A stretch of 64,000 nucleotides of DNA, taken from the NCBI GenBank assembly GCA_965215185.1, contig OZ244034.1:192001-256000 (forward strand), written 5' to 3'. This stretch comes from Acidimicrobiia bacterium (lineage in GTDB: Bacteria > Actinomycetota > Acidimicrobiia > Spongiisociales > ZC4RG35). The translations under genes and the position numbers were made by a program. The notes beneath the pieces were generated by a model. That model saw only the letters and a program-made list of their open reading frames with translations. It had not been told where the DNA came from and did no database searches. Positions 3,989-64,000 of this stretch are shown one piece after another (positions within the stretch are counted from its first letter, which is position 1; each line of letters starts with the position of its first letter).

Positions 3989-6649
3989 CTAGTTGCTGGC
4001 CATCTGGCGGAGGACGTAGGGGAGAATGCCTCCGTGGCGGTAATAGTCCACCTCGATGGGGGTGTCGATGCGGATGATGGCTTCGAACGCCTTGGAGATT
4101 CCGTCCTCGCCTTCAGCTTTCACCATCACCCGCTGGCCTGGCGCCAGTGACTCGTCAACGGGGATGTGAAAAGTCTCGATGCCTGACAGTCCCAGAGTCC
4201 GGGGGTTTTCACCTTCCGCGAACTGGAGGGGCAGCAGGCCCATCATCACCAGGTTGGTGCGATGGATCCGCTCGTAGCTCTCGGCGATCACCGCCCGCAC
4301 GCCCAGCAGGAAGGGGCCCTTCGCAGCCCAGTCACGGGAGGATCCCATCCCGTAGTCCCGGCCCGCAATAACTATGAGTGGCGTTCCAAGGTCACGGTAA
4401 TTGCCCGCCGCTTCGAAGATGGTTTTGACCTGCCCATCCCCGAAGTCGGTGGTGTACCCTCCCACCGTTCCCGGGGCCAGGAGATTCCGCACTCGGAGAT
4501 TGGCGAAGGTGCCCCGGCTCATAACCCGGTCGTTGCCCCGTCGGGCGCCGTAGGAGTTGAATCTAGAGGGTTGGACCCCCCGTTCTATCAGGTAGCGTCC
4601 GGCGGGAGTCTCCGCCGAGATGGAACCGGCGGGGGAGATGTGATCGGTGGTGATCGAATCGCCCACCATCACCAAAGTGCGGGCTCCCACAATGGGCTGC
4701 ACCGCACGAGGCTGGGGGGTCAGGTCCGCAAAGAAGGGCGGCGACTGGATGTAGGTGGATTCCTCCGACCAGTCGTAGAGCCGGCTTTCGGGCGTAATCA
4801 CCGAGCGCCACTCCTCGGCTCCGGTGAAGACGTCTGCATAGCGTCCCGTGAATTGTTCCCGGTTCACATTACGGCTGATGACAGAGGTGACTTCCTTCTG
4901 ACTCGGCCAGATGTCCCTCAGGAAGACCTCCCGGCCTTTGGAGTCGGTTCCCAGCGGCTCGGTGGCCGGATCCCAGTCGACCGTGCCCGCTAGGGCATAA
5001 GCCACCACCAACGGAGGAGATGCCAGGTAGTTGGCCTGGACGTAAGGGTGGATGCGGCCCTCGAAATTGCGGTTCCCCGAGAGCACCCCGGCTGCCACCA
5101 GATCGGCGGAGTCGATAGCGTCCGAGATCGGCTCCGGCAGGGGACCGGAGTTGCCGATGCAGGTAGTGCATCCGTACCCGACCAGGTAGAACCCCAACGC
5201 CTCCAAGTCCTCAGTGAGCCCGGCCTTGTCCAAATAGGCTGTTACCACCTGGGAGCCGGGAGCCAGCGAGGTCTTGACCCAGGGCTGGCGCCGTAGACCC
5301 CGGCGGCGGGCGTTGCGGGCCAAAAGTCCTGCTCCCACCATAACCGCCGGATTGGAGGTGTTGGTACAAGAGGTGATGGCGGCGATGACCACCCGACCGT
5401 GTTCCATGTCGAAGGTGTCACCGTTCATGCTCACTTCCAAAGCGGCGGCGGCGCCGTTGGGAGCGCGGTCGAACACCGCGGCGAGGTCACTGTGCCATTG
5501 CTCCTTCATACGGAACAGCGGGATCCGGTCCTGCGGGCGGCGAGGGCCGGCCAGGGACGGCTCCACCGTGCCCAGATCCAACTCCAGATGGGCGTGATAA
5601 GAGATCTGGCGGTCATCTCGCCACAGGCCCTGTTCCTTGCAGTACTGCTCGACCGTCTCCACCAGCTCTGGGGACCGGCCCGAAAGCTCCAGGTAGCGGA
5701 TGGTCTGGCTGTCCACTGGGAAAAAGCCCACCGTCGCTCCGTATTCGGGCGCCATGTTGGCGATGGTGGCGCGGGTAGCCACCGGCATGTCGTCAAGCCC
5801 CGGGCCCCCGAATTCCACGAATTTGCCTACCACCCCGTAGGATCGCAGCATTTCTGTGACCCGGAGCACCAGGTCGGTGGCGGTGGATCCTTCTCTGAGT
5901 TGGCCGGTGAGACGGACTCCCACCACCTCGGGAAGAAGCATGGAGATGGGCTGACCCACCATCACCGCTTCGGCCTCTATCCCACCTACTCCCCATCCTG
6001 CCACCCCCAAGCCGTTGATCATGGTGGAGTGCGAGTCGGTGCCCACCAGGCTGTCGGGATAGAGCCACTCCCCATCGTCCCATACCACTTTGGCCAGGTA
6101 TTCCAGGTTGACCTGATGGACAATGCCGGTGGCGGGGGGGACCACCCGGAAATTGTTGAAAGCCGACTGCGCCCATTTGAGGAGTTGATACCGCTGCTGA
6201 TTTCTTTCGAACTCCCGCCGGGAGTTGATCATCAGGGCGTCAGGTCGGTTGAAGGCGTCGATCTGAACGCTGTGATCAATCACCAAGTCCACCGGGACCA
6301 AAGGGTTGACCAAGTCGGCCGCGTCGGGATCGCCGGTCATGGCCACGATGGCGTCGCGCATGGCGGCCAGATCCACCACGGCGGGCACCCCAGTGAAGTC
6401 CTGGAGGAGCACCCGGCCGGGAATGAAAGGGATCTCTTTGGCAGAGGAGAGGGCAGGGTTATAGGCGGCGATGGTATCGATGTCCTCGGCAGAGAATCCA
6501 GGTCTGCCCAGGTTCCGTACCGCCGACTCCAAGAGGACCTTGATGGAATAGGGAAGAGCGTCAACCCCGGGCACTGAGTCCAGCCGGGCGATCTTTCTTT
6601 GCCCAAGGGGCGTGGAAATAGTATCTATGGAGCTTTGAGCGGTGTTCAT
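3989..6649 (-). CDS. acnA: Aconitate hydratase A
   Basis: RVLLQDFTGVPAVVDLAAMR, AAITSCTNTSNP, GYGCTTCIGNSG, YGMGSSRDWAAKG. Start taken at MNTAQ (6649). Confidence 0.97.
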   Translation of the reverse strand: MNTAQSSIDTISTPLGQRKIARLDSVPGVDALPYSIKVLLESAVRNLGRPGFSAEDIDTIAAYNPALSSAKEIPFIPGRVLLQDFTGVPAVVDLAAMRDAIVAMTGDPDAADLVNPLVPVDLVIDHSVQIDAFNRPDALMINSRREFERNQQRYQLLKWAQSAFNNFRVVPPATGIVHQVNLEYLAKVVWDDGEWLYPDSLVGTDSHSTMINGLGVAGWGVGGIEAEAVMVGQPISMLLPEVVGVRLTGQLREGSTATDLVLRVTEMLRSYGVVGKFVEFGGPGLDDMPVATRATIANMAPEYGATVGFFPVDSQTIRYLELSGRSPELVETVEQYCKEQGLWRDDRQISYHAHLELDLGTVEPSLAGPRRPQDRIPLFRMKEQWHSDLAAVFDRAPNGAAAALEVSMNGDTFDMEHGRVVIAAITSCTNTSNPAVMVGAGLLARNARRRGLRRQPWVKTSLAPGSQVVTAYLDKAGLTEDLEALGFYLVGYGCTTCIGNSGPLPEPISDAIDSADLVAAGVLSGNRNFEGRIHPYVQANYLASPPLVVAYALAGTVDWDPATEPLGTDSKGREVFLRDIWPSQKEVTSVISRNVNREQFTGRYADVFTGAEEWRSVITPESRLYDWSEESTYIQSPPFFADLTPQPRAVQPIVGARTLVMVGDSITTDHISPAGSISAETPAGRYLIERGVQPSRFNSYGARRGNDRVMSRGTFANLRVRNLLAPGTVGGYTTDFGDGQVKTIFEAAGNYRDLGTPLIVIAGRDYGMGSSRDWAAKGPFLLGVRAVIAESYERIHRTNLVMMGLLPLQFAEGENPRTLGLSGIETFHIPVDESLAPGQRVMVKAEGEDGISKAFEAIIRIDTPIEVDYYRHGGILPYVLRQMASN

Positions 6650-48138: not shown

Positions 48139-50784
48139 GAGGCTTCGCGATATGTTGGGATTTGGGTAGGGAGGGGCTCTGGAGTTGCCCCGTTTTTGTG
48201 GACGGTTTGATGGTCCCCCGGTTTCTTGGAGTCAGCTCACTTGGATCAGTGGAGTGACGGTTCGGTTGTCGTCGTAGTGTATTTTCTCGTATTCGATGGG
48301 GGTGTGCATCTGTAGGGCGGTGTGGCGCCGCTGCCGGTTGTGGAAGATCTCCACGTACTCGAAGATAGCGTTGGCGAGTTCGATACGGGTCCGCCAGCGT
48401 CGCCGGTCCAACAGTTCAACCTGCATACGAGCCCAGAACGACTCCATTGTGGCGTTATCGAAACAATCCCCGACGGTTCCCATCGACGGTACCAGTCCGG
48501 ATTCGAGGGCCCGTTGGGTGAACGCCCAGGAGGTGAATTGGGTGCCCTGGTCCGAATGTATAACCGTGCCGGGATCGGGTTGGCGGTTCCCGATTGCCAT
48601 TCCCAACGCCGAGGTGACCAGTCCCGAGGTCGCCGAGTTATCGATCGACCAGCCCACGACCCGGCGACTGAACACGTCCAGCACCACAGCACAGTACACC
48701 TTGCCTTCCCGGGTGGGATGTTCTGTGATATCGGTCACCCACAGTTGGTCCGGTTCGAAACGGGCGAAGTTGCGGTCGACCAGGTCCACTGGCGTGTCTG
48801 CGTGGCGGGTCCGCCGTCTCGGGGTGCGGTCACCTACTAAGACCAGCTAGACCAGCTCTGCGCATCAGCATCGCTACTGCGTTGTGTCCTACGGTTATTC
48901 CATGACCCAATCTCAGTTCGGCGTGCACCCGCGGTGCCCCATACGTGCCGCGTGACTGTTCATGGATGTGGTGGATGACGTCGGTCAACCAGGCGTGGCG
49001 GATGCAACGGGCTGACGGCGGTCGGGACCTCCAGGCGTAGAACCCGGACTCTGACACTCCGAGCACTCGGCACGCCACCTGGGTGGGAAGCCGTTCGGTT
49101 CTCATGGTCCCGGATCACGGCGTAGCGTCTTTTGGGGACACCACTTGGTCTCCCAGCAGTTCAATAGCTCGCTTGGTCACGGCCAGTTCGGTTTCCAGAT
49201 CGACGATCCGACGGCGAGCGGCGCGCAGTTCGGCCTGTTCCTCCGAAGTGGCGCCGGGTTGTAGACCGCGGTCGATTCGGTCTTGACGCCGCCAGTTGTA
49301 GATCGTCTGATCAGACACCCCGAGATCCGCTGACAACGACGCTACCGACCTACCAACTGCCAGCAGATCGAGCACCCTGCGGCGAAACTCGGGGGGATAT
49401 CGATAAGGCATGAAGACTCCTTTCGGGTCAGTCATACCACCAATTCAAATAACCCGACTCCACGAAAGTGGGGTACCACCAGGGGTTGAGGCCTCGCTGG
49501 AATTGGCGGTGTAAGCATTGCCTATCCAGGAGGCCTCAATGAGTTTCGATGTTATGAGGGTGCGGTTGCACCTGCGTGGTGTTCGTGTGACCGGTGTGGA
49601 AGTGGACACCCCCGCAGAGTTGGTGGTGGGGGTGGTTTCTGTCAGGAAGTTGTCATCGTGCCCGTTTTGTGGGCTTTCTTGCCAGCAGGTGCATGACCGT
49701 CGCCGCAGGGAGATCCGCGATCTGGAGCACGGCGGCCGCTCGACGGTGGTGCTATGGACCCAGCGGCGGTTCGTGTGCGGTGCTTGTGGGAAACGGCACA
49801 TGGAAAACCATCCCCAGTTCGAAGGCAGTATTACCCGGCGGCTGGCCCGGCGGCTGGTCCAAGACGCTCAGGTGATGCCGATCAGTGCGGTGTCCCGACA
49901 TCATCGGGTGGGGTGGCATCTGGTCATGGGACTGCTCTGTGACTGGTCCGGGCTGGTCGGAGATCATCGTCGCAAACAGTCCTGTCGGGTGTTGCTGATC
50001 GATGAGACATCGATCCGCAAACGGCATCGGTATGTGACCGTGATCCCCTAGCGGTGACACCGGAGAGATGTTGGCGATGATCGAAGGACGCTCCAAAGCT
50101 GCTCTGAGCAGGTTCTTCATAGAACAAGGACCCCGATGGTGCCACAGTGTGCGTACCGTGGTCACCGACGGTTCCCACTCCTACCGGGCAGCCGTCCATC
50201 GCTATCTTCCCGGAGCCCGTCACGTCCTGGACCGGTTCCACGCCGTCCGCTGGTTCGCCCAAGGACTGACCCTGGTACGCAGAGAACTGCAACGCCGCCA
50301 ACCGCCCGGTGTGAAACCCGCCTTCGAACCGGACCTGTTCCGCGCCCGGTTCTGTCTGCTACGCAGAAACGACCACCTCACCGCCGCCGACCGGAAACGC
50401 CTCGAATGGCTATTCGCCGCCCACCCGCGTCTTCGGGTGGCCTGGGACGCTCTACAAGAGCTCTACGGCCTCTATCAGGCCGACGATCTCCAAGGCGCCC
50501 TGGACGCTCTCCAACGCTTCGCCGACCTCTACGAAACCGGCCAGATTCCCGAGTACCACAACACCGTGGACACCATATTGAACTGGTCAGACGAAATCCT
50601 GAACTGGCACCACAGCCGCCGTTCCAACGGACCCCTCGAAGGCACCAACAACCTAATCCAAACCCTCCGCAGAACCGCCCACGGCTTCACAAACCCCCAA
50701 AACTACGCCGCCCGAGGACTCCTCCTAACATGAACCCCACCACCAACCAGCCAGACCACAATCCCACGAATTCGCGAAGGGCCC
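48139..50784 (+). mobile_element. ISL3-family element; transposase 49539..50733 frameshifted near 50047; interrupted by IS3
   Basis: Zn finger CPFC...RRFVC..C, IDE, V.TD, DRFH, SNGPLEG.NN.I..L.R.AHGF.N..NY. Ends CTTCGCGATATGTTGGGATT and AATCCCACGAATTCGCGAAG are inverted repeats. Confidence 0.85.
48208..49481 (-). mobile_element. IS3-family element (orfA 49115..49435; orfB 48232..49105 with an extra frameshift)
   Basis: TG...CA ends with IRs TGATGGTCCCCCGGTTTCTTGGAGTC and TGGTGGTACCCCACTTTCGTGGAGTC. DDE motifs WVTDIT, HSDQGTQF, DNA..ESF. CCCCAAAA slippage site. Confidence 0.9.
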
Positions 50785-53471: not shown

Positions 53472-54398
53472 TCATCTCGGTAACCGTTGTTTGTCAAATG
53501 TGGATGTGAGTTCCGCGATGGCTTCGTTTCCTGGTTTGGTGTATATGGCGAGTGTGCGTGGGTCTTGGTGTCGGCTTTTGGCTTGGAGCAGGATGGTGGA
53601 GGCCCCTTTCTCGCCGAGGTGGGTGAGTGAGGAGTGGCGGAGTTGGTGCAGTGTCCACCCCCCGGTGGTTTGTTTGTAGATGGTGGAAGCCCGCTCGTAG
53701 GACAGTCTTCCCCGGCCGGTGTGGGGGCATTCGTCTCCTCGGGCGGGGATGACGTTGGGTCGCCGGTGGGTTAGAAACACAGGTCCTCGACGGCGGCCGG
53801 CCAAATACCGTGATAGAAGCCGTGCGGTGCCGGATGCCCAGAAGACGTATTCTTTGTGGCCGCCTTTGCCGATGATGACTGCCCGCTTGCGGGGAAGGTC
53901 AAGATCCTCCACGTTGAGCGCGAGGATTTCCCCGGCCCGGGCGGCTGTTTCGTACAGCATCTTCCACAGGGTTTTTTCTCGCAGGTCTATGTCTCTTCGG
54001 GACCATAGATTTTCGAGGTCTTGGTAGGGGATGGCTTTGGTCTGGTCGCGGGGCTTCCGGCGGCGTACTACCAGTGTCATCGGGTCGTGGTCTATCCATT
54101 TGTTGCGTTGGCAGTAGGAAACGAACGACTGGAGGGCGGTGATTCGGGTGTTCCAGGTGGCGGGTTGAGCGGACCCCCACCGTTGCTGGAAGACCTCTAG
54201 AACATGGCGGGGGTCCAGTTGGTCAACGGAAAGGTCCATGCCAAGATCCTCGATTACGGCCGATAGCGCTTGGCCATATGCCCGCCGGGTGTTGGCTGAG
54301 AGTTGCTTGTCGGAGAAGAACGCTTCCACCGCCGACCGCAGTCGTGGTGTTCCCCGGTAGTCGGCTAATGCCACGACCCGGCTGTTCACAGCATGCAC
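53472..54398 (-). CDS. Tyrosine recombinase / site-specific integrase
   Basis: N-terminal SANTRRAY SAM-like domain. Catalytic R (YETAAR), K (GKGG), HQLRH, H (SRH) and Y (LAIY) are all intact. Confidence 0.93.
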   Translation of the reverse strand: MHAVNSRVVALADYRGTPRLRSAVEAFFSDKQLSANTRRAYGQALSAVIEDLGMDLSVDQLDPRHVLEVFQQRWGSAQPATWNTRITALQSFVSYCQRNKWIDHDPMTLVVRRRKPRDQTKAIPYQDLENLWSRRDIDLREKTLWKMLYETAARAGEILALNVEDLDLPRKRAVIIGKGGHKEYVFWASGTARLLSRYLAGRRRGPVFLTHRRPNVIPARGDECPHTGRGRLSYERASTIYKQTTGGWTLHQLRHSSLTHLGEKGASTILLQAKSRHQDPRTLAIYTKPGNEAIAELTSTFDKQRLPR

Positions 54399-57859: not shown

Positions 57860-57989
57860 ATGCAGGAGTCCCAGCCTTCCATCGTATATTGTGACCTAAG
57901 CGTAGAAACGCCTTAGGTTGCACCTATAGGAAAAGCGATATCAATTTGTATTATCCTGGATGCTACATCTGTCCCCTTTGGGAGGCGAT

Positions 57990-58490
57990 AATGAGGCCTG
58001 GATGAAGGAGCGTTTGGGGCTGCGGGTGGTTTTGCCGTCGCTGGTGTGCTTCGGTTCAGTCGGTGGCGGATGGGTTGCCCGGAGGAGGCTAGGGGTGGTG
58101 CGAGCGGGCAAACCGAGCGAAGGGTGCTTCGTTGCGACATCGGCCTGGATGAGACAAGACGATGTACACTTGGGAAGGCGGTGATGGGTCCTATTCCTGG
58201 CTGGTCCAATAGGCGGCGGGGCAACAGAGTTGACCAGTTCGGCGATGGATGCTTTGAGGGCTTGGGAAGGGCAAGACCATCAACAGAACTCGTGATTGAG
58301 TGGGGAGACGGGACTCGGGACACCATTTTGAGTGGGGTCGTCCTCGGTGATGTCCCCTACCCGCACCGGTAGTCGCAGCCAACTCAATCCCGGGAGAGTC
58401 AGTTCCGCGCCGGTCCTGGGTGTGCTTGGTGAGCACACGGATGCGTCTGGCCAGGCTGTGGAGCGCCTGTTTGGTGGCGGTGAGTACGTT
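57990..58490 (-). mobile_element. Degraded IS110-family transposase remnant
   Basis: Fragments across frames: LHSLARRIRVL, LLDQPGIGPITA, PLASSGQPIRHRLNR. Confidence 0.65.
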
Positions 58491-58526
58491 CATGGGTGAC
58501 CGCCCTCTTCGGGACATTACCGTAGG

Positions 58527-58559
58527 CTACGACTGATACTCCATAAATATCTGTTGTGA
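58527..58559. other. Putative recombination site C: CTACGACTGATAC-tccataa-ATATCTGTTGTGA
   Basis: Direct repeat of site B (TACGAC.GATACTCCATAAATATC). IS remnants on both sides end at or near it. Confidence 0.7.
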
Positions 58560-58848
58560 TGAGTGCCCGCCGCAGGCAGGTCAACCCCTCTCGTTCCTCC
58601 GATGCCAAACATAGGAGATCGACCCTCATTAATCTCGGCCTGGGTCACCCACCGTCGCAGACCGGAACTGGAAGTCCCAACCGGCGAGCAACAACAGACA
58701 GCACTTTCTCCCTCTCCCGAAGCAAATCCACTGCTCGACGGTGGAACTCCTCCGGATAGGCAGCCGGATCACAACCTCCTTGCCAAAGAGCCCAAACCGG
58801 CTCTTGCACGATCACAGAGTACGTGCCCAGAAAACGGAGGAACTCCAA
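58560..58848 (-). mobile_element. IS3-family left end and orfA remnant, truncated at site C
   Basis: IR-like TGGAGTTCCTCCGTTTTCTGGGCAC; PAAYPEEFHRRAVDL...VARRLG, WVTQAEI, SEERE.L..LRR. Confidence 0.65.
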
Positions 58849-59163
58849 CAACCGACTGTGGGGGCTGTGGAGTGGAGGAAGTCCAGGTTGATGGTTCCTT
58901 GTTTGGGGAACCGGGTGGTGGGGAGGGGGGTTCTTCTGAGAAGGACAGCAGTGACACTGTTTGAGCCTTCTGATGGTTCTGGTGTGGAGGGCGCTGGTGG
59001 GGTGCCTCAGACAGTGTTGTTCAGGTCAAACCTGATGCGGGAGCCCGCAGGCCTAGCCACTACCGAGGTCAGTTTCTGCTTGAGCGTCGGTACTATGGAG
59101 GCGCACCCCGGCTATTTGACCGCTCGGGCAGCCTACTGTTCACGTTGCTAGGTCGGCCTCTAG

Positions 59164-60135
59164 ATGGATCGCAAATCTATGAAGGTTATTGAGATTGGAA
59201 CTCTTGATCGCATCGCGGTGCGTGAGGTATGGCCGCAGGAGGCCGGGGATTTCACGCCATGGCTTGCAGAGAACGTCGAACTAATAAGTGAGGCAATGGG
59301 GATGGACCTTGAACTTGTGGGTCAAGAAGTCTCAGTCGGCAAATACAGCGCCGATCTGGTGCTGAAAGAGGTCTCTTCTGGTGCTGTGGTGGTTGTTGAG
59401 AACATGTACGGCCAGACGGATCATGACCACATCGGCAAGCTCATCACCTATGCGGCTGGCCTGGACGCGAGTTACGCGGTGCTATTGGCCGAGAACTTCC
59501 GTCCCGAGCACCGCTCAGCGCTCAATTGGCTGAACTCGATCTCAACTGAGGACTGCGGCTTTTTTGGTCTCGGTCTAGAAACATGGCGTATCGGTGATTC
59601 GAGCCCGGCGCCGCAGTTGCGGATTGATGTGCAACCCGACGACTGGACCAAGAGCGTCAGAGCGACAAAGGGCCGGCAGGACAGCCAGCGTGAAACGCTA
59701 TTCAGACGGTTCTGGGCTGAGATGCAGTCGAGCTTCAGAGCAGACAGCACAGACTGGGCAGGAAGAGGCAAGCCGTCAAAAGAGGCGTGGATGCCCTTCA
59801 AGTCGCGCAAAGGCGTCCAGTTCATTGTCACATTCTGCAAACCGGGCAATGTCCCGGCTTTCCGTGCCGAGGCATATATCGACACAGGGGACAAGGAAAG
59901 CACAGCCAAGCTGTATGAGGCTCTTGAGGCAAGACGAACTGAGATCGATACCGCATTTGGCAAAGAACTCGAATGGTCAAGGTTGGAGAAGCGTCGGGCT
60001 TCCCGCGTCAGTACCTACTATCCGCAACCGATCGGGATCGAGGACGAGGACCACTGGCCGCAAGCCCGGGCCTGGGCAGTGTCCGCACTCGGTGGCCTAC
60101 GTGCGGCTATTGAACCGGTACTTGACGATCTGTAG
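59164..60135 (+). CDS. DUF4268-domain protein with N-terminal PD-(D/E)XK nuclease-like domain
   Basis: REVWP.EA.DFTPWL, E.SVG.YSADL...VVVEN....TDHDH.GKLITYAAG, FR.EHR.AL.WLN; C-terminal EI...FG.EL.W..L..RRASR. Confidence 0.85.
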   Translation: MDRKSMKVIEIGTLDRIAVREVWPQEAGDFTPWLAENVELISEAMGMDLELVGQEVSVGKYSADLVLKEVSSGAVVVVENMYGQTDHDHIGKLITYAAGLDASYAVLLAENFRPEHRSALNWLNSISTEDCGFFGLGLETWRIGDSSPAPQLRIDVQPDDWTKSVRATKGRQDSQRETLFRRFWAEMQSSFRADSTDWAGRGKPSKEAWMPFKSRKGVQFIVTFCKPGNVPAFRAEAYIDTGDKESTAKLYEALEARRTEIDTAFGKELEWSRLEKRRASRVSTYYPQPIGIEDEDHWPQARAWAVSALGGLRAAIEPVLDDL

Positions 60136-60254: not shown

Positions 60255-60736
60255 GTGCTAGGTCTCTACACACTGCCCTGGTGTTGAGGACGTGACCCAA
60301 ATCAGGACAGCAAATACTGTGGAGCCAGTCATGGTCCGCCTATGAAACTCTTACAGTGTTGCTCTTTGTTGCCACGGTCGTACCCTTGGCTGAGGTGACG
60401 GGCTGGATCGATTGGCGCAGGTGCAGTCTTTTGCAGCGGCCACAACGCCTCGCAGCGATTCTGGTGTTGGTGAGCGTCACTTGTGGTACGCATGACTGAC
60501 CGGCCGTCTAGTGCGGATCACAGGTCCGGCTTGTAAGCGTCGAACTGACAAGCGGATGGTTGCCACAGGGAGAATTCACAGGCGAGAACATCACCAGTCC
60601 GATTCTCGCGCTGCGACGTGGCCCACCGAATGCTTGGTATACGAATCCCTTCTGCGCTGTGACATTACCCTGAGCGTTTGACCGGCGTTACGAAACTGCG
60701 GAGATATTCCTGAGTTCCTCAACCCCGCGACGATCT

Positions 60737-61315
60737 CTATCGCTGGGCGCGCTTCTTCCTAATGAGAGCCTGGTTCTGCCTTACCACACCGGTAACGCTC
60801 AATCTGTACCGGGCCATCTTTTCGCTGACACCGTACTTCTTGGCTACATCTTTCGCTCCTGACCCCTTACGGACTTCCGCCAAGAGCAACGCTCTGGGCA
60901 GAAGGAGGCATCCAGACAACCAGCCAGCCTCTTCCTCCTGAGTCAGGTCACAAGAAAGAAAGGTGATATCGCCAAGCCGCTCAACACGGCTCAAATTGTG
61001 GTCGAGGAGAACATGTGCTAGTTCGTGGGCGACATCGCTCCTCTGGCGCGACTTTGCCGATAGAGGGTTGTATACAACGACCGCTCGATCAGGCGAAGGC
61101 TGAAGCGTGCATGCAGAGAAGGAATTGGGCTGGATGTTTTCGAGTTCGTTGAAACGTTCTCGCGGTATCAACTCGTCTCCCGCTCGGACCTCAATACCCA
61201 GCAGCTTCGCAAGAGCTTCAGGCTCAACGGACTGAGCGGCCTTCATCCCCAGTTCCGTTCGCACATCCCTTGCGATTCTCTCCGCTTCGGACTTAAACCC
61301 TCTGCGCAGGGCCAT
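60737..61315 (-). CDS. ImmA/IrrE-family metallopeptidase
   Basis: RRGFKSEAE, RQRSDVAHELAH (HExxH), QEEEA.WL.G.LLLPR. Confidence 0.92.
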   Translation of the reverse strand: MALRRGFKSEAERIARDVRTELGMKAAQSVEPEALAKLLGIEVRAGDELIPRERFNELENIQPNSFSACTLQPSPDRAVVVYNPLSAKSRQRSDVAHELAHVLLDHNLSRVERLGDITFLSCDLTQEEEAGWLSGCLLLPRALLLAEVRKGSGAKDVAKKYGVSEKMARYRLSVTGVVRQNQALIRKKRAQR

Positions 61316-61772
61316 GAGCGGCCTCCTCCATGAGGGCTTGATTCAGATCGCTCAGCAAAGCCCCTAGAGCGCGGGCCGCGTCAGGGCGGAAGGTCTTCGC
61401 AGCCCGCAGGTGTACAGCAGCGATCTCCTGGGGGCGCGCCAGAGCCTGGTAGAGGTCGCCGACGATGCCTGCGATCCGTTCCGCGGCTTCAGGGGGGAGG
61501 TTGCGGTCTGCACGCAGGTGCTCAGCGATTACATCGGGGGTCGCAGTTGCCTTCTGCTGAATTTCAAAGAATTGATTGATATCGGCGCCGCACCACTCGA
61601 CAAGGCGCTTGAATTTAGGAAGGTCTGGTACGTGTCCCTTCTCGACCCGTGCCAGAGTATTGAAGGGGATTCCTAGGGCAAAAGCGGCTTCTCGGAGGCT
61701 CATCCCTCTCCGGTTTCGCTCGGCTAGGACAAGGCGGCCTAGGTCGCTGAGTTCAAGCTTGCCTGCGTTCAT
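61293..61772 (-). CDS. XRE-family HTH repressor
   Basis: R.RRGMSLREAA..LGI...TL.RVEKG..PD HTH and a HLRADRNL...A...IA segment; overlaps the peptidase start. Confidence 0.9.
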   Translation of the reverse strand: MNAGKLELSDLGRLVLAERNRRGMSLREAAFALGIPFNTLARVEKGHVPDLPKFKRLVEWCGADINQFFEIQQKATATPDVIAEHLRADRNLPPEAAERIAGIVGDLYQALARPQEIAAVHLRAAKTFRPDAARALGALLSDLNQALMEEAAHGPAQRV

Positions 61773-61790
61773 CCATTTTGCCCCTTGTGC

Positions 61791-61874
61791 GTATACTGGT
61801 ACAGTGTACTGATAGTGATCGACAAGGCGTCGGTCACAGTACCGCAAATGGTACTTTGAAGGTTCTTTGGAACC
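61791..61874. promoter_or_regulatory. Palindromic candidate operators in the divergent promoter
   Basis: GTATACT-ggtac-AGTGTAC (61791-61809), AGTACC-gcaaat-GGTACT (61838-61855), GGTTC-tttg-GAACC (61861-61874). Confidence 0.5.
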
Positions 61875-61892
61875 TAGAAAGGAGTCTGGACA

Positions 61893-62162
61893 ATGGTTGC
61901 AGACAAAGACAAAGTCACGATTGTCGTGAACGGGAGAAAGAGGGTAGTCCCTTCAAAAGATCTCTCCTCTGATGGAGAGATCTCCTTCAAGCGGGTCGTT
62001 AGCCTAGCGTTCGACCCACCGCCCTTCGGTCCATACATCGTGTTCACGGTGAGTTACCGGAACAGTGCGGGGAGGCCGCCAGACGGAAGGCTGATTGCGG
62101 GCCAGAGTGTGAAGATCCAGGACGGGACTGTTTTCAATGTCTCTTTCACTGATAAGTCGTAG
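61893..62162 (+). CDS. Ubiquitin-like (multiubiquitin / beta-grasp) protein
   Basis: VTIVVNGR...ISF..VV.LAF...FTV.Y...L..GQSVKI.DG.VFNV..TDKS pattern; AAGGAG RBS. Confidence 0.85.
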   Translation: MVADKDKVTIVVNGRKRVVPSKDLSSDGEISFKRVVSLAFDPPPFGPYIVFTVSYRNSAGRPPDGRLIAGQSVKIQDGTVFNVSFTDKS

Positions 62163-63309
62163 CGCCGACCTCAAGCTCCTTGAAGACGAGGGCTACGAAG
62201 TGGAGGTGCGCTCCGACTACCTGCTCTTGAACTCCATCCCCTACGTCACCGAAGCCAGAGCCATCAGGTACGGGACTCTCGTTTCTGAGTTGAGCTTGAC
62301 GGTAGACGCCACCACGATGCCGAGCACGCATGTCGTGATGTTCGCCGGAGAGATGCCTTGCGACCCAAAAGGGCGCCCTTTGACCCAGATCAGTCACTCC
62401 AGTGATAGGCAGGAGCTTGCTGAAGGCTTAGTCGTGAACTACAGCTTCTCAAGCAAACCGCCTGGAGGCTATGCGGACTACTACCAGAAGATGACCACCT
62501 ACGAGGCCATCATTTCCGGGCCAGCCCAGTCGATTGACGCGAGTGTCACCGCTCGAACCTTTTCTGTGGTCGAGGCTCAGGACGAGGACTCCGTGTTCAA
62601 GTACATGGATACAGCGTCGACCCGTGCCCGAATCGGCCCCATAACTGGAAAGCTAAAGATCGGCGCGGTAGCAATCATAGGGCTGGGGGGGACAGGTTCA
62701 TACATACTCGACCTGGTGGCGAAGACACCGGTGAGGGAAATCCACCTGTTCGATGGCGACAAGTTTGGACAGCACAACGCCTTCCGGTCGCCAGGAGCGC
62801 CGTCCATCGAAACGCTGAAGGCCGCACCACAGAAAGCCTCTCATTACAGAGACATTTACTCCGAGATGCGGCGCAACATCGTCGCCCACGGATACGTGGA
62901 TGAATCAGTGGTGGAGCGCCTGCGGGCTATGGACTTCGTCTTCATAGCGGTCGATAAGGGTCGCCCCAGGAGGCTCGTAGTGGAGAAACTGGAGGAATTC
63001 GGCGTGCCGTTCATAGACGTTGGGATGGGCGTGGACGAAGTTGAGGGTTCGCTGCTGGGCCAATTGAGAGTGACTGCGAGCACGGACCGGTCTCGTGACC
63101 AAGTGCGCTCGACACTCCCTATTTCAGACCGCGACGACGAAGACGACTACTCCCGCAACATTCAGATCGCTGATCTCAACGCACTGAACGCGGCTCTGGC
63201 CGTGATCAAGTGGAAGAAACTTTGCGGATTCTATGCCGACCTTGAGAAGGAGCACACGAGCTTGTACCAGATTGACGGCAACTACCTGATCAACGAGGAC
63301 AAGGTGTGA
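62137..63309 (+). CDS. E2-like (DUF6791-type) domain fused to a ThiF/E1 adenylyltransferase
   Basis: N-terminal DL..L..EGY.V......LL...IPY (E2 family E-like), FSSKP..GY.DYY.K. C-terminal IIGLGGTGS, FDGD, HNAFR, PFID.GMG, NIQIADLN. Confidence 0.88.
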   Translation: MSLSLISRSADLKLLEDEGYEVEVRSDYLLLNSIPYVTEARAIRYGTLVSELSLTVDATTMPSTHVVMFAGEMPCDPKGRPLTQISHSSDRQELAEGLVVNYSFSSKPPGGYADYYQKMTTYEAIISGPAQSIDASVTARTFSVVEAQDEDSVFKYMDTASTRARIGPITGKLKIGAVAIIGLGGTGSYILDLVAKTPVREIHLFDGDKFGQHNAFRSPGAPSIETLKAAPQKASHYRDIYSEMRRNIVAHGYVDESVVERLRAMDFVFIAVDKGRPRRLVVEKLEEFGVPFIDVGMGVDEVEGSLLGQLRVTASTDRSRDQVRSTLPISDRDDEDDYSRNIQIADLNALNAALAVIKWKKLCGFYADLEKEHTSLYQIDGNYLINEDKV

Positions 63310-63710
63310 CTCGAATCAACACGCTCCGACACGAGTTTGTTGAATACATCCCAGATGCAGTGAATGAGGGCGTGTTGTACGTGTCCATGCCCTTCGCCAC
63401 AGTCGTGCACCGGTGTTGCTGTAGGTGTGGAAGCGAGGTGGTGACACCGCTGGATCCCAGCGACTGGGAGATGACGTTCGACGGGAAGTCCATCTCCCTC
63501 TACCCGTCGATTGGAAACTGGAGCCTAGCCTGCCAATCCCACTATTGGATCCATCGCAACCAGGTCCGGTGGGCTCGACGCCTCTCGACATTTGAAATCA
63601 AGAAAGGCCGAGCCATCGACCGTATTAAGAAGGCATGGCTCCCCGGCTGTAAGTGGCAGTCTCTTTGGCGGGTGTTATCCAGGCGGTTCAGGCGAATGAC
63701 TAGGGGCTAG
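63306..63710 (+). CDS. DUF6527 family protein (putative Ubl peptidase)
   Basis: FVEYIP.....G.LYVS..F....H.CCC.CG..V.TPL...W...SL.PSIGNW...C.SHYWI; GTGA overlap with the E1 gene. Confidence 0.85.
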   Translation: MTRINTLRHEFVEYIPDAVNEGVLYVSMPFATVVHRCCCRCGSEVVTPLDPSDWEMTFDGKSISLYPSIGNWSLACQSHYWIHRNQVRWARRLSTFEIKKGRAIDRIKKAWLPGCKWQSLWRVLSRRFRRMTRG

Positions 63711-64000
63711 ACAGCATGGGTTATTTCTTTAGAGACTCTGTTCGGCTGTTGGCGATCACTGAAATTCGCTCATAATGGATGGTGCCCCGTTTTACGGGGC
63801 CGCCCTACCATGATGGGGGGTGACCCGTAGACCGGGGAGCGATCTGACCCAATTGAAATCTGGCGTATGAGCGTCTTTAGGGGATCTATCGGCCTGTCCC
63901 CCAAGTAGGGCGAGGTGGGCGGTTTCCAAGGGGCGCTGGGTGGCCGAGAGGACCTTACCAACCCTGCCGGATAGTTAGGCGCCCAGCCTCGGTGAAACGA

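Follow-up and report, generated by a model that had tools for sequence, protein, structure and literature searches.

A probable Type II Bub ubiquitination cassette with a divergent regulator pair in a defence island of an Acidimicrobiia genome

The '6E/DUF6527' operons, renamed 'Bub' in a preprint (bioRxiv 10.1101/2024.11.21.623953; what we take from this source, here and below, comes from its main text), have diverged further than any other bacterial relatives of ubiquitination, and none of their steps uses a catalytic cysteine. According to the preprint, a Type II Bub operon (6E.2) consists of BubA, a ubiquitin-like protein (Ubl), BubBD, a fusion of E2 and E1, and BubE, a DUF6527 protein, and a JAB peptidase is usually absent. 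The E1 is described as making a Ubl~Tyr oxyester on its crossover loop and the E2 as making a Ubl~Ser oxyester, the serine of Type II enzymes being accompanied by an invariant lysine and histidine, while BubE is described as a Ser/His protease of low activity, which has a C4 zinc site and clears conjugates in cells. ATP-dependent conjugation of BubA through oxyesters has been shown there for the Citrobacter and E. coli proteins only, and in BubBD of E. coli ZDHYS365 the substitutions R219A, Y342F and S106A abolished the formation of BubA-BubA conjugates in vitro. In this study, we compare with these systems a locus at positions 61893-63710 of a 64,000-nucleotide stretch of DNA from an Acidimicrobiia bacterium (assembly GCA_965215185.1, contig OZ244034.1, positions 192,001 to 256,000), which is called the window in what follows.

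Type II Bub operons have been known since 2024, and the present copy adds no new kind of system. We consider it likely that we are dealing with an intact and typical cassette of the Type II Bub kind, to which the published Type II cycle applies. This copy is useful as a compact version with a single beta-grasp domain, clear borders and a regulator without a GAF domain, located beside three other defence systems. In addition, the serine-terminated Ubl tail and the dual coding at the junction of bubA and bubBD are simple and testable features of the family.

Gene set and signature residues of the locus

The three genes of the locus, and the junction that two of them share, are as follows.

61893..62162, plus strand: bubA, an 89-amino-acid (aa) ubiquitin-like protein with a single beta-grasp domain, a Multi_ubiq match and the C-terminus ...FTDKS, ending in Ser89
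62137..63309, plus strand: bubBD, a 390-aa fusion of an E2-like domain (DUF6791, residues 10-159) and an E1 adenylation domain (ThiF-like, residues ~165-385)
62137..62162, plus strand: 26-nucleotide (nt) dual-coding overlap, which encodes the BubA tail NVSFTDKS and stop plus the BubBD N-terminus MSLSLISRS
63306..63710, plus strand: bubE, a 134-aa DUF6527 protein with the cysteines of a C4 zinc site and a Ser68/His79 dyad

An earlier reading of this DNA made from its letters only (the sequence-only reading) had described three overlapping, intact genes, and the list of open reading frames (ORFs) bears this out, with the same coordinates, products of 89, 390 and 134 aa, no internal stop in any of the three, and overlaps of 26 nt for bubA/bubBD and 4 nt for bubBD/bubE. 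An AGGAG ribosome-binding site at 61880-61884 precedes bubA, 9-13 nt before its ATG. In Pfam, BubA matches PF14452 Multi_ubiq (E 9.7e-12), BubBD matches PF20590 DUF6791 over residues 10-159 (E 2.6e-58) and PF00899 ThiF over residues 172-297 (E 1.3e-10), and BubE matches PF20137 DUF6527 (E 3.2e-24), all of them scores far beyond chance level; in NCBIfam, BubBD reaches 563 bits with PRK06153.1-4, for which the cut-off is 352. The labels given earlier, a Ubl, an E2-like/ThiF fusion and a DUF6527 protein, agree with these hits and with the published definition of Type II Bub, and both the gene set and the gene order of that definition are found at 61893-63710 when the ORFs and their Pfam matches are set beside it. 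The family is large: cluster representatives matched at E ≤ 1e-3 number 2036, those matched at E ≤ 1e-30 number 558, and there are at least 8000 clusters at 90% identity.

The catalytic residues of BubBD were located in an alignment of 144 sequences, namely the window protein and 143 of the 150 best cluster representatives at 50% identity, seven of which had been dropped for a length outside 370-420 aa. His65 and Arg217 are present in all 144 sequences, Ser105 in 142, Tyr338 in 141 and Lys107 in 129. Across this alignment, a serine with a lysine and a histidine replaces the catalytic cysteine of the E2, as reported for Type II enzymes, and the E1 half has an adenylation arginine (Arg217) and a crossover-loop tyrosine (Tyr338) whose equivalence to the published residues is drawn from conservation and numbering; Ser105, Arg217 and Tyr338 of the window protein sit 1-4 residues from the E. 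coli positions S106, R219 and Y342. The two sequences without Ser105 carry a cysteine at the equivalent position, which may be a reversion to thioester chemistry. Cys75, a candidate for a catalytic cysteine, was invariant in a first alignment of the 21 closest sequences but is present in only 101 of the 144 in the wider one; because of this, BubBD is taken to have no conserved catalytic cysteine.

With a 26-row alignment as input, AlphaFold2 gave a model of BubBD whose mean predicted local distance difference test (pLDDT) value is 78.4. Tyr338 falls within a low-confidence loop of this model (residues 332-341), in keeping with the preprint's proposal that the crossover loop is mobile. The top Foldseek matches of the model are the Citrobacter BubCD structures 9ea5, 9eav and 9ea4 (1.9e-11 to 1.3e-10), and a VIA re-alignment with 9eae_B gave Z 21.5 and a root-mean-square deviation of 3.0 over 207 aligned residues (model residues 166-382), with ThiF, SUMO E1, Atg7 and UBA5 ranking just under BubCD in the VIA list. 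The BubBD model has, in other words, an E1 fold related to BubCD, UBA5 and ThiF. In the N-terminal domain, seen within the whole model, a helix is followed by a four-strand meander, a short strand ending at Ser105, a loop and a long helix, an order that is compatible with the UBC fold; a search of the ESM Atlas with residues 1-150 returned no usable match. We assign this domain as a probable E2 from its membership in DUF6791, the Ser/Lys/His signature and the account in the preprint.

The BubA tail, the shared junction and BubE

BubA ends in serine in all 20 sequences compared (the window and the 19 relatives that have bubA), and T-D-K/R/Q-S is the ending of 19 of them. The terminal serine is also found in the more distant virus-like contigs that include the upstream sequence (4/4). 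BubA aligns through the very end of the E. coli protein (PDB 9cd2), and TDKS closes both; by analogy with this shared tail, Ser89 would be the residue that is activated in the window protein. Upstream and downstream genes are joined in the same way throughout: bubA reaches exactly 26 nt into bubBD, counted to the end of its stop codon, in the window, in 19/19 genome loci with bubA and in 4/4 viral contigs, making 24/24, and these loci span Chloroflexota, Proteobacteria, Bacteroidota, virus-like contigs and two archaeal metagenome-assembled genomes (MAGs). The BubBD N-terminus, MSxSLISRS with an invariant M1, shares its bases with the BubA tail. The two archaeal loci, in a Nitrosopumilus sp. 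MAG (L019) and a Bathyarchaeota MAG (L021), both at ~4745-6612, hold a complete bubA-bubBD-bubE set with the 26-nt overlap and the serine tail; the main text of the preprint mentions bacterial operons only. Relatives of BubBD are also encoded by eight virus-like contigs of IMG/VR (L025-L032), with 39-61% identity.

In the preprint, a conserved C-terminal glycine is described for Type I Bub only. Its main text contains neither the term 'C-terminal serine', nor such an overlap, nor the term 'translational coupling', and the supplementary figures and tables may show either point. If the dual coding is functional, be it through obligate translational coupling or through fixed stoichiometry, with the tail and the enzyme N-terminus co-evolving, this would amount to a design rule not yet reported for the family, and the same would be true if the serine tail and an all-oxyester chemistry send BubA to hydroxyl or non-protein acceptors instead of lysines. 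We regard as unlikely the broader reading that Type II Ubls are activated at an invariant C-terminal serine, with either a function for the dual coding or a steering of BubA to non-lysine acceptors by tail and oxyester chemistry, and with a different trigger at the present locus.

The third protein, BubE, has the C4 zinc site (C37, C39, C41 and C76) together with the Ser68/His79 dyad, and the spacing from its last cysteine to the histidine (C76+3) equals that of C99/H102 in the Citrobacter protein of the preprint. It had earlier been called Cys/His-rich, a fitting description given H35, C37, C38, C39, C41, C76, H79 and H83. In an alignment of 19 sequences (the window and 18 relatives; L012 was left out as broken and L020 because its contig ends), H35, C37, C39, C41, C76, S68, S78 and H79 are invariant. 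The C-terminal extension of BubE, residues ~92-134, is basic and hydrophobic. The locus had been seen as a minimal system without JAB, and it does lack a JAB gene; what does not follow is that deconjugation is lacking too, since BubE is reported to act as a Ser/His protease and to take BubA off its conjugates.

Modelled together, BubE and BubA gave a complex score of 0.75, and the best of three controls gave 0.45. The mark set for this score is reached by 58 of 80 solved complexes and by 2 of 110 mismatched pairs, counts that apply only approximately to alignments of our own making. At least 97% of contacts are common to the runs, the partners have pLDDT values of at least 86, and the predicted interface places residues 67-74 and 79 of BubE, including Ser68 and His79, against the BubA tail (residues 82-89). 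The model supports the view that BubE binds BubA and that the tail of this beta-grasp Ubl is presented at the dyad, an arrangement that the preprint predicts with AlphaFold 3 for two other species. Searching the PDB with the single BubE sequence found nothing meaningful (best E 0.6), and the PDB copy searched holds no BubE structure, so the passing score does not go back to a complex that was already solved. A model of BubE predicted from one sequence was unusable (pLDDT 34.8).

Borders, regulators and neighbourhood of the cassette

The sequence-only reading had treated the locus as a three-gene unit. This does not hold, as a divergent helix-turn-helix (HTH) repressor and an M78 metallopeptidase travel along with it, which makes five genes. 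The additional features are the following.

60737..61315, minus strand: capP-like gene, a 192-aa M78 (ImmA/IrrE-type) zinc metallopeptidase with H97-E98-x-x-H101 and E128, then an HTH-like linker; no C-terminal GAF domain
61293..61772, minus strand: capH-like gene, an HTH (XRE-type) repressor with a probable start at ATG 61772 (159 aa); the longest ORF runs to TTG 61847
61798..61809, no strand: candidate operator 1, palindrome GGTACAGTGTAC beside the capH-like start; putative function
61839..61854, no strand: candidate operator 2, palindrome GTACC-N6-GGTAC between a -35-like element and the bubA ribosome-binding site; putative function

A blastn comparison with eight related loci (L003-L007, L009, L010 and L015) shows similarity that starts at 60724-60785 and ends at 63576-63746, with unrelated flanks. 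These borders coincide with the capP-like stop on one side and lie at or just past the bubE stop on the other. Because DNA similarity is confined to this block while the flanks are unrelated, the five genes are taken to move as one cassette of ~3.0 kb (about 60,730-63,746), and the pair of HTH and M78 genes is found in the same arrangement at 9/20 related genome loci. No terminal direct or inverted repeats were found at the cassette borders. There is no transfer RNA (tRNA) gene in the window at 30000-64000 or in the 14.5 kb downstream, so that a tRNA-linked insertion as in the two examples of the preprint is not seen here, and neither the locus nor the same 14.5 kb matched an RNA family of Rfam. 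Among 201 sampled genomes of the order, DUF6791 occurs in three, this one included, and in none of the 30 others of its own family.

Directly after bubE, five related loci encode a conserved hydrophobic protein of ~160 aa with probably several transmembrane segments (L004 6520-7068, L009 6580-7077, L015 6578-7057, L022 6382-7041 and L003 6668-6985). An accessory or effector function within this clade is conceivable for it; the window has no counterpart by tblastn. A decayed near-copy lies on an Acidimicrobiia MAG contig (L012, 5001-6641), in which only residues 164-390 of BubBD are left and a frameshift breaks bubE in two. Its DNA is 90% identical to positions 62629-64307 of the window and its continuation, reaching ~600 nt past bubE, with further patches of 82-92% downstream, a likeness that suggests either recent transfer or a binning error.

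The preprint counts CapH+CapP at 168/544 Bub operons. Upstream of bubA, and on the opposite strand, the window has the same arrangement of an HTH repressor and an HExxH metallopeptidase, whose genes overlap by 23 nt. The capP-like protein matches Pfam Peptidase_M78 (2.2e-18) and the PADLOC capP model (1.7e-11, profile positions 4-150 of 242), and the capH-like protein matches HTH_3 (7.8e-07) and HTH_31 (2.1e-06); single-sequence searches of the PDB with either protein found nothing. In ten capP-like orthologues (the window and nine others), all 182-201 aa long, H97, E98, H101, E128 and R90 are invariant, and C122 is not. The zinc-site residues H97, E98, H101 and E128 are numbered identically in E. 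coli CapP. At 192 aa, as in the other orthologues, there is no room for a CapP-type GAF domain. Three of the nine capH-like orthologues are 159 aa by longest ORF, and the other six are 137-180 aa. Between the capP-like stop and the PDC-S11 gene upstream (listed below), no further ORF with a family match was found. On sequence grounds, the pair is better called CapH/CapP-like or ImmR/ImmA-like.

The intergenic region has a -35-like element, TTGACA in relatives and CGACAA in the window. A GGTAC-N3-GTAC motif is kept in the window and in most of eight related loci, and a pair of GTAC motifs 12 nt apart occurs in 9/10 aligned upstream regions (the window and eight of nine related loci), L022 being the one without GTAC. 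These palindromes are candidate operators for the HTH protein, placed over the bubA promoter. A promoter and terminator scan found sites no more numerous than in shuffled sequences.

Outside the borders, the neighbourhood contains the following genes; those given in L002 coordinates lie downstream of the window.

59164-60135, plus strand: PDC-S11 / DUF4268 gene, a PADLOC candidate defence model, full length, 2.3e-93; just outside the cassette border
L002 1268-2959, minus strand: dCTP deaminase, a 563-aa protein with a cytidine/dCMP-deaminase domain, PADLOC dCTPase 4.1e-125; ~770 nt past the window end, on the same contig
L002 3877-13945, plus strand: Dpd cluster (7-deazaguanine DNA modification) with DpdC, DpdA, DpdB, DpdE and DpdF
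48232-48789: rve integrase-core ORF
49518-50051 and 50068-50733: ISL3 transposase, split in two ORFs
53472-54398: tyrosine integrase/recombinase gene

The earlier description of a defence island is well founded, with PDC-S11 upstream and the dCTP deaminase and Dpd cluster downstream in PADLOC. Some 1.5 kb without recognisable genes separate bubE from the dCTP deaminase gene, and DpdE is split into two overlapping ORFs (L002 8235-9749 and 9637-11367), which suggests a frameshift or an assembly error. The 'decayed IS fragments' (insertion sequences) of the sequence-only reading are in part borne out. At 57880-59160 there is no ORF recognisable by Pfam, and degenerate repeats there have 14 partial matches elsewhere in the genome (71-89% identity); two of these, at contig positions 371964-372169 and 374115-374311, fall inside IS110-family transposase genes. 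A gene for an SLH/PD40 surface protein also lies upstream. The statement that no thi or moa genes are nearby stands as well: the 29 flanking ORFs scanned against Pfam (12 downstream of at least 90 aa and 17 upstream of at least 120 aa, so that small genes could be missed) include none, and no rhodanese or cysteine-desulfurase gene either.

Proposed cycle, rival explanations and known systems

By analogy with its relatives, the cassette would work as follows. The E1 half of BubBD would bind BubA and adenylate its C-terminal carboxylate (Ser89) by means of Arg217 and the glycine-rich ATP loop; BubA would then pass as an oxyester to Tyr338 of the flexible crossover loop, move on as an oxyester to Ser105 of the fused E2-like domain with the aid of Lys107 and His65, and finally be transferred to amino groups of target proteins. 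BubE, as a zinc-stabilised Ser68/His79 protease, would bind the BubA tail, strip conjugates and thereby restrain the pathway. The HTH repressor would probably sit on the GTAC palindromes over the bubA promoter and be cleaved by the M78 peptidase, probably upon a signal of DNA damage or infection. In this scheme, the oxyester chemistry, the protease activity and the cleavage of the repressor come from the literature on relatives, and they are placed on the gene set, residues, E1 fold match, predicted BubE-BubA interface and borders observed here; the operators, the trigger and the biological role we infer.

Several points weigh against this account and are best considered together. The signature residues of BubBD were placed by conservation and near-identical numbering and not by direct alignment to E. 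coli BubBD. For the E2 half, matches to the E1 domain take up the whole of the Foldseek and VIA lists, and when a profile made from 87 BubBDs was run against PDB sequences with E up to 10, it found BubCD and other E1s but did not reach the BubB chain solved for Type I. A C-terminus other than glycine is unusual for an adenylated Ubl. The GAF domain of E. coli CapP (residues 182-288) forms half of a groove that binds single-stranded DNA, as reported in the text of bioRxiv 10.64898/2026.05.16.725639, and because the window peptidase has no GAF domain, such a trigger is not simply transferable to it. Finally, the authors of the Bub preprint found no Bub operon that protected E. coli from phage, which makes a defence role circumstantial, and the anti-phage action put forward by the sequence-only reading is for the same reason not established.

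On balance, we lean slightly towards a role in anti-phage defence or in an infection-linked stress response. The same conjugation chemistry could also serve another end, in a module for the response to DNA damage or stress, or for the maintenance of a mobile element, that tags host proteins when induced; we hold this to be possible, although on the less probable side. The absence of phage protection in E. coli speaks for it, as does the preprint's wording, which leaves 'antiphage immunity or stress response' open, and pairs of HTH and M78 genes elsewhere govern the induction of prophages and of integrative and conjugative elements as well as the damage response of Deinococcus; the eight IMG/VR contigs with BubBD relatives point the same way. 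However, the genes that flank the cassette (PDC-S11, the dCTP deaminase and Dpd) are recognised defence genes or candidates for such, the cassette is scattered among genomes in the manner of defence genes, and the related Bil and Type II CBASS pathways are defensive according to the introduction of the preprint. BubE might be less a deconjugating protease than an E3-like adaptor, or a transfer factor, by which the tail of BubA is presented to targets, possibly at the membrane. The preprint itself notes that a Ser/His pair near the BubA C-terminus could serve Ubl transfer or proteolysis, and in vitro cleavage took 48 h; the basic, hydrophobic C-terminal extension would suit a transfer factor, and the complex model with the predicted tail on Ser68/His79 suits both readings. 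Against this, wild-type Citrobacter BubE cleared BubA conjugates in E. coli while the S92A and H102A mutants did not, and E. coli BubA and BubBD made conjugates without BubE, so that we find such a function quite improbable.

Two further explanations concern whether the locus conjugates proteins at all. Matches of the C-terminal half of BubBD, in sequence and in fold, include ThiF, MoeB, TcdA and MccB, as would be expected of a ThiF/MoeB-type sulfur-carrier or peptide-modification system, whose beta-grasp carrier would be adenylated to form a thiocarboxylate or to serve biosynthesis instead of protein tagging. Yet the best matches of BubBD are to BubCD, BubA as a carrier has no Gly-Gly tail, the genes that would accompany such a pathway (thi, moa, rhodanese and cysteine desulfurase) are missing from the flanking ORFs scanned, and the DUF6791 fusion with a DUF6527 partner defines the very operons for which the preprint showed conjugation; we give this explanation hardly any credence. 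Scarcely better placed, and very improbable in our view, is a decaying, non-functional remnant in a degraded island. The IS fragments and split DpdE nearby and the truncated, frameshifted near-copy in an Acidimicrobiia MAG would suit it, but the five ORFs are intact, every signature residue is kept, and the overlaps and the ribosome-binding site are preserved.

Set beside known systems, the locus differs from a ThiF/MoeB sulfur carrier in the ending of its carrier and its surroundings: BubA ends in TDKS where a Gly-Gly tail would be expected, and thi/moa or sulfurtransferase genes are absent from the 29 flanking ORFs scanned. The Bil (bacterial ISG15-like) operons, as summarised in the preprint, conjugate a Ubl in a defence context, as the present locus probably does. 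Their E1 and E2, however, are two proteins that each use a catalytic cysteine, and a JAB serves as deubiquitinase; none of these is present here. Type II CBASS Cap2/Cap3 (and 6A-MBL) is likewise built on an E2-E1 fusion that conjugates a C-terminus, with a reversing peptidase and frequent CapH/CapP control. In contrast, Cap2 has catalytic cysteines and conjugates the CD-NTase instead of a Ubl, and the CBASS peptidase is a JAB; the PADLOC E1-E2 models match only the Rossmann region of BubBD, with ≤26 bits, and there is no CD-NTase gene at the locus. The regulators share the divergent pairing of an HTH repressor and an HExxH metallopeptidase with CapH+CapP (E. coli MS115-1 and Thauera sp. K11), ImmR/ImmA and DdrO/IrrE. 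Compared with CapP, the window peptidase, at 192 aa, ends after an HTH-like linker and does not conserve the cysteine of the cysteine switch, and its size is nearer to that of ImmA.

The closest systems are the Bub operons themselves. Type I Bub of Citrobacter sp. RHBSTW-00271 (6E.1; PDB 9ea4, 9ea5, 9ea8, 9eae and 9eav) has the same E1 adenylation fold (Z 21.5), and, going by the preprint's account, it shares with the window the crossover-loop tyrosine, a serine replacing the E2 cysteine, and the C4 zinc site and Ser/His dyad of BubE. It differs, by the same account, in that the Ubl is fused to the E2 (BubAB) and the JAB peptidase to the E1 (BubCD), in that its Ubl ends in glycine after JAB cleavage whereas BubA here ends in serine, and in the residues beside the E2 serine, which are histidine and aspartate in Type I and lysine and histidine in the window; the E2 domains of the two types have no similarity detectable by profile search. 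Type II Bub of E. coli ZDHYS365 (PDB 9cd2) has the same three genes in the same order, no JAB and the same TDKS tail. Here the differences are that the E. coli BubA has three beta-grasp domains (222 aa) where the window BubA has one (89 aa), and that the window regulator peptidase is without a GAF domain.

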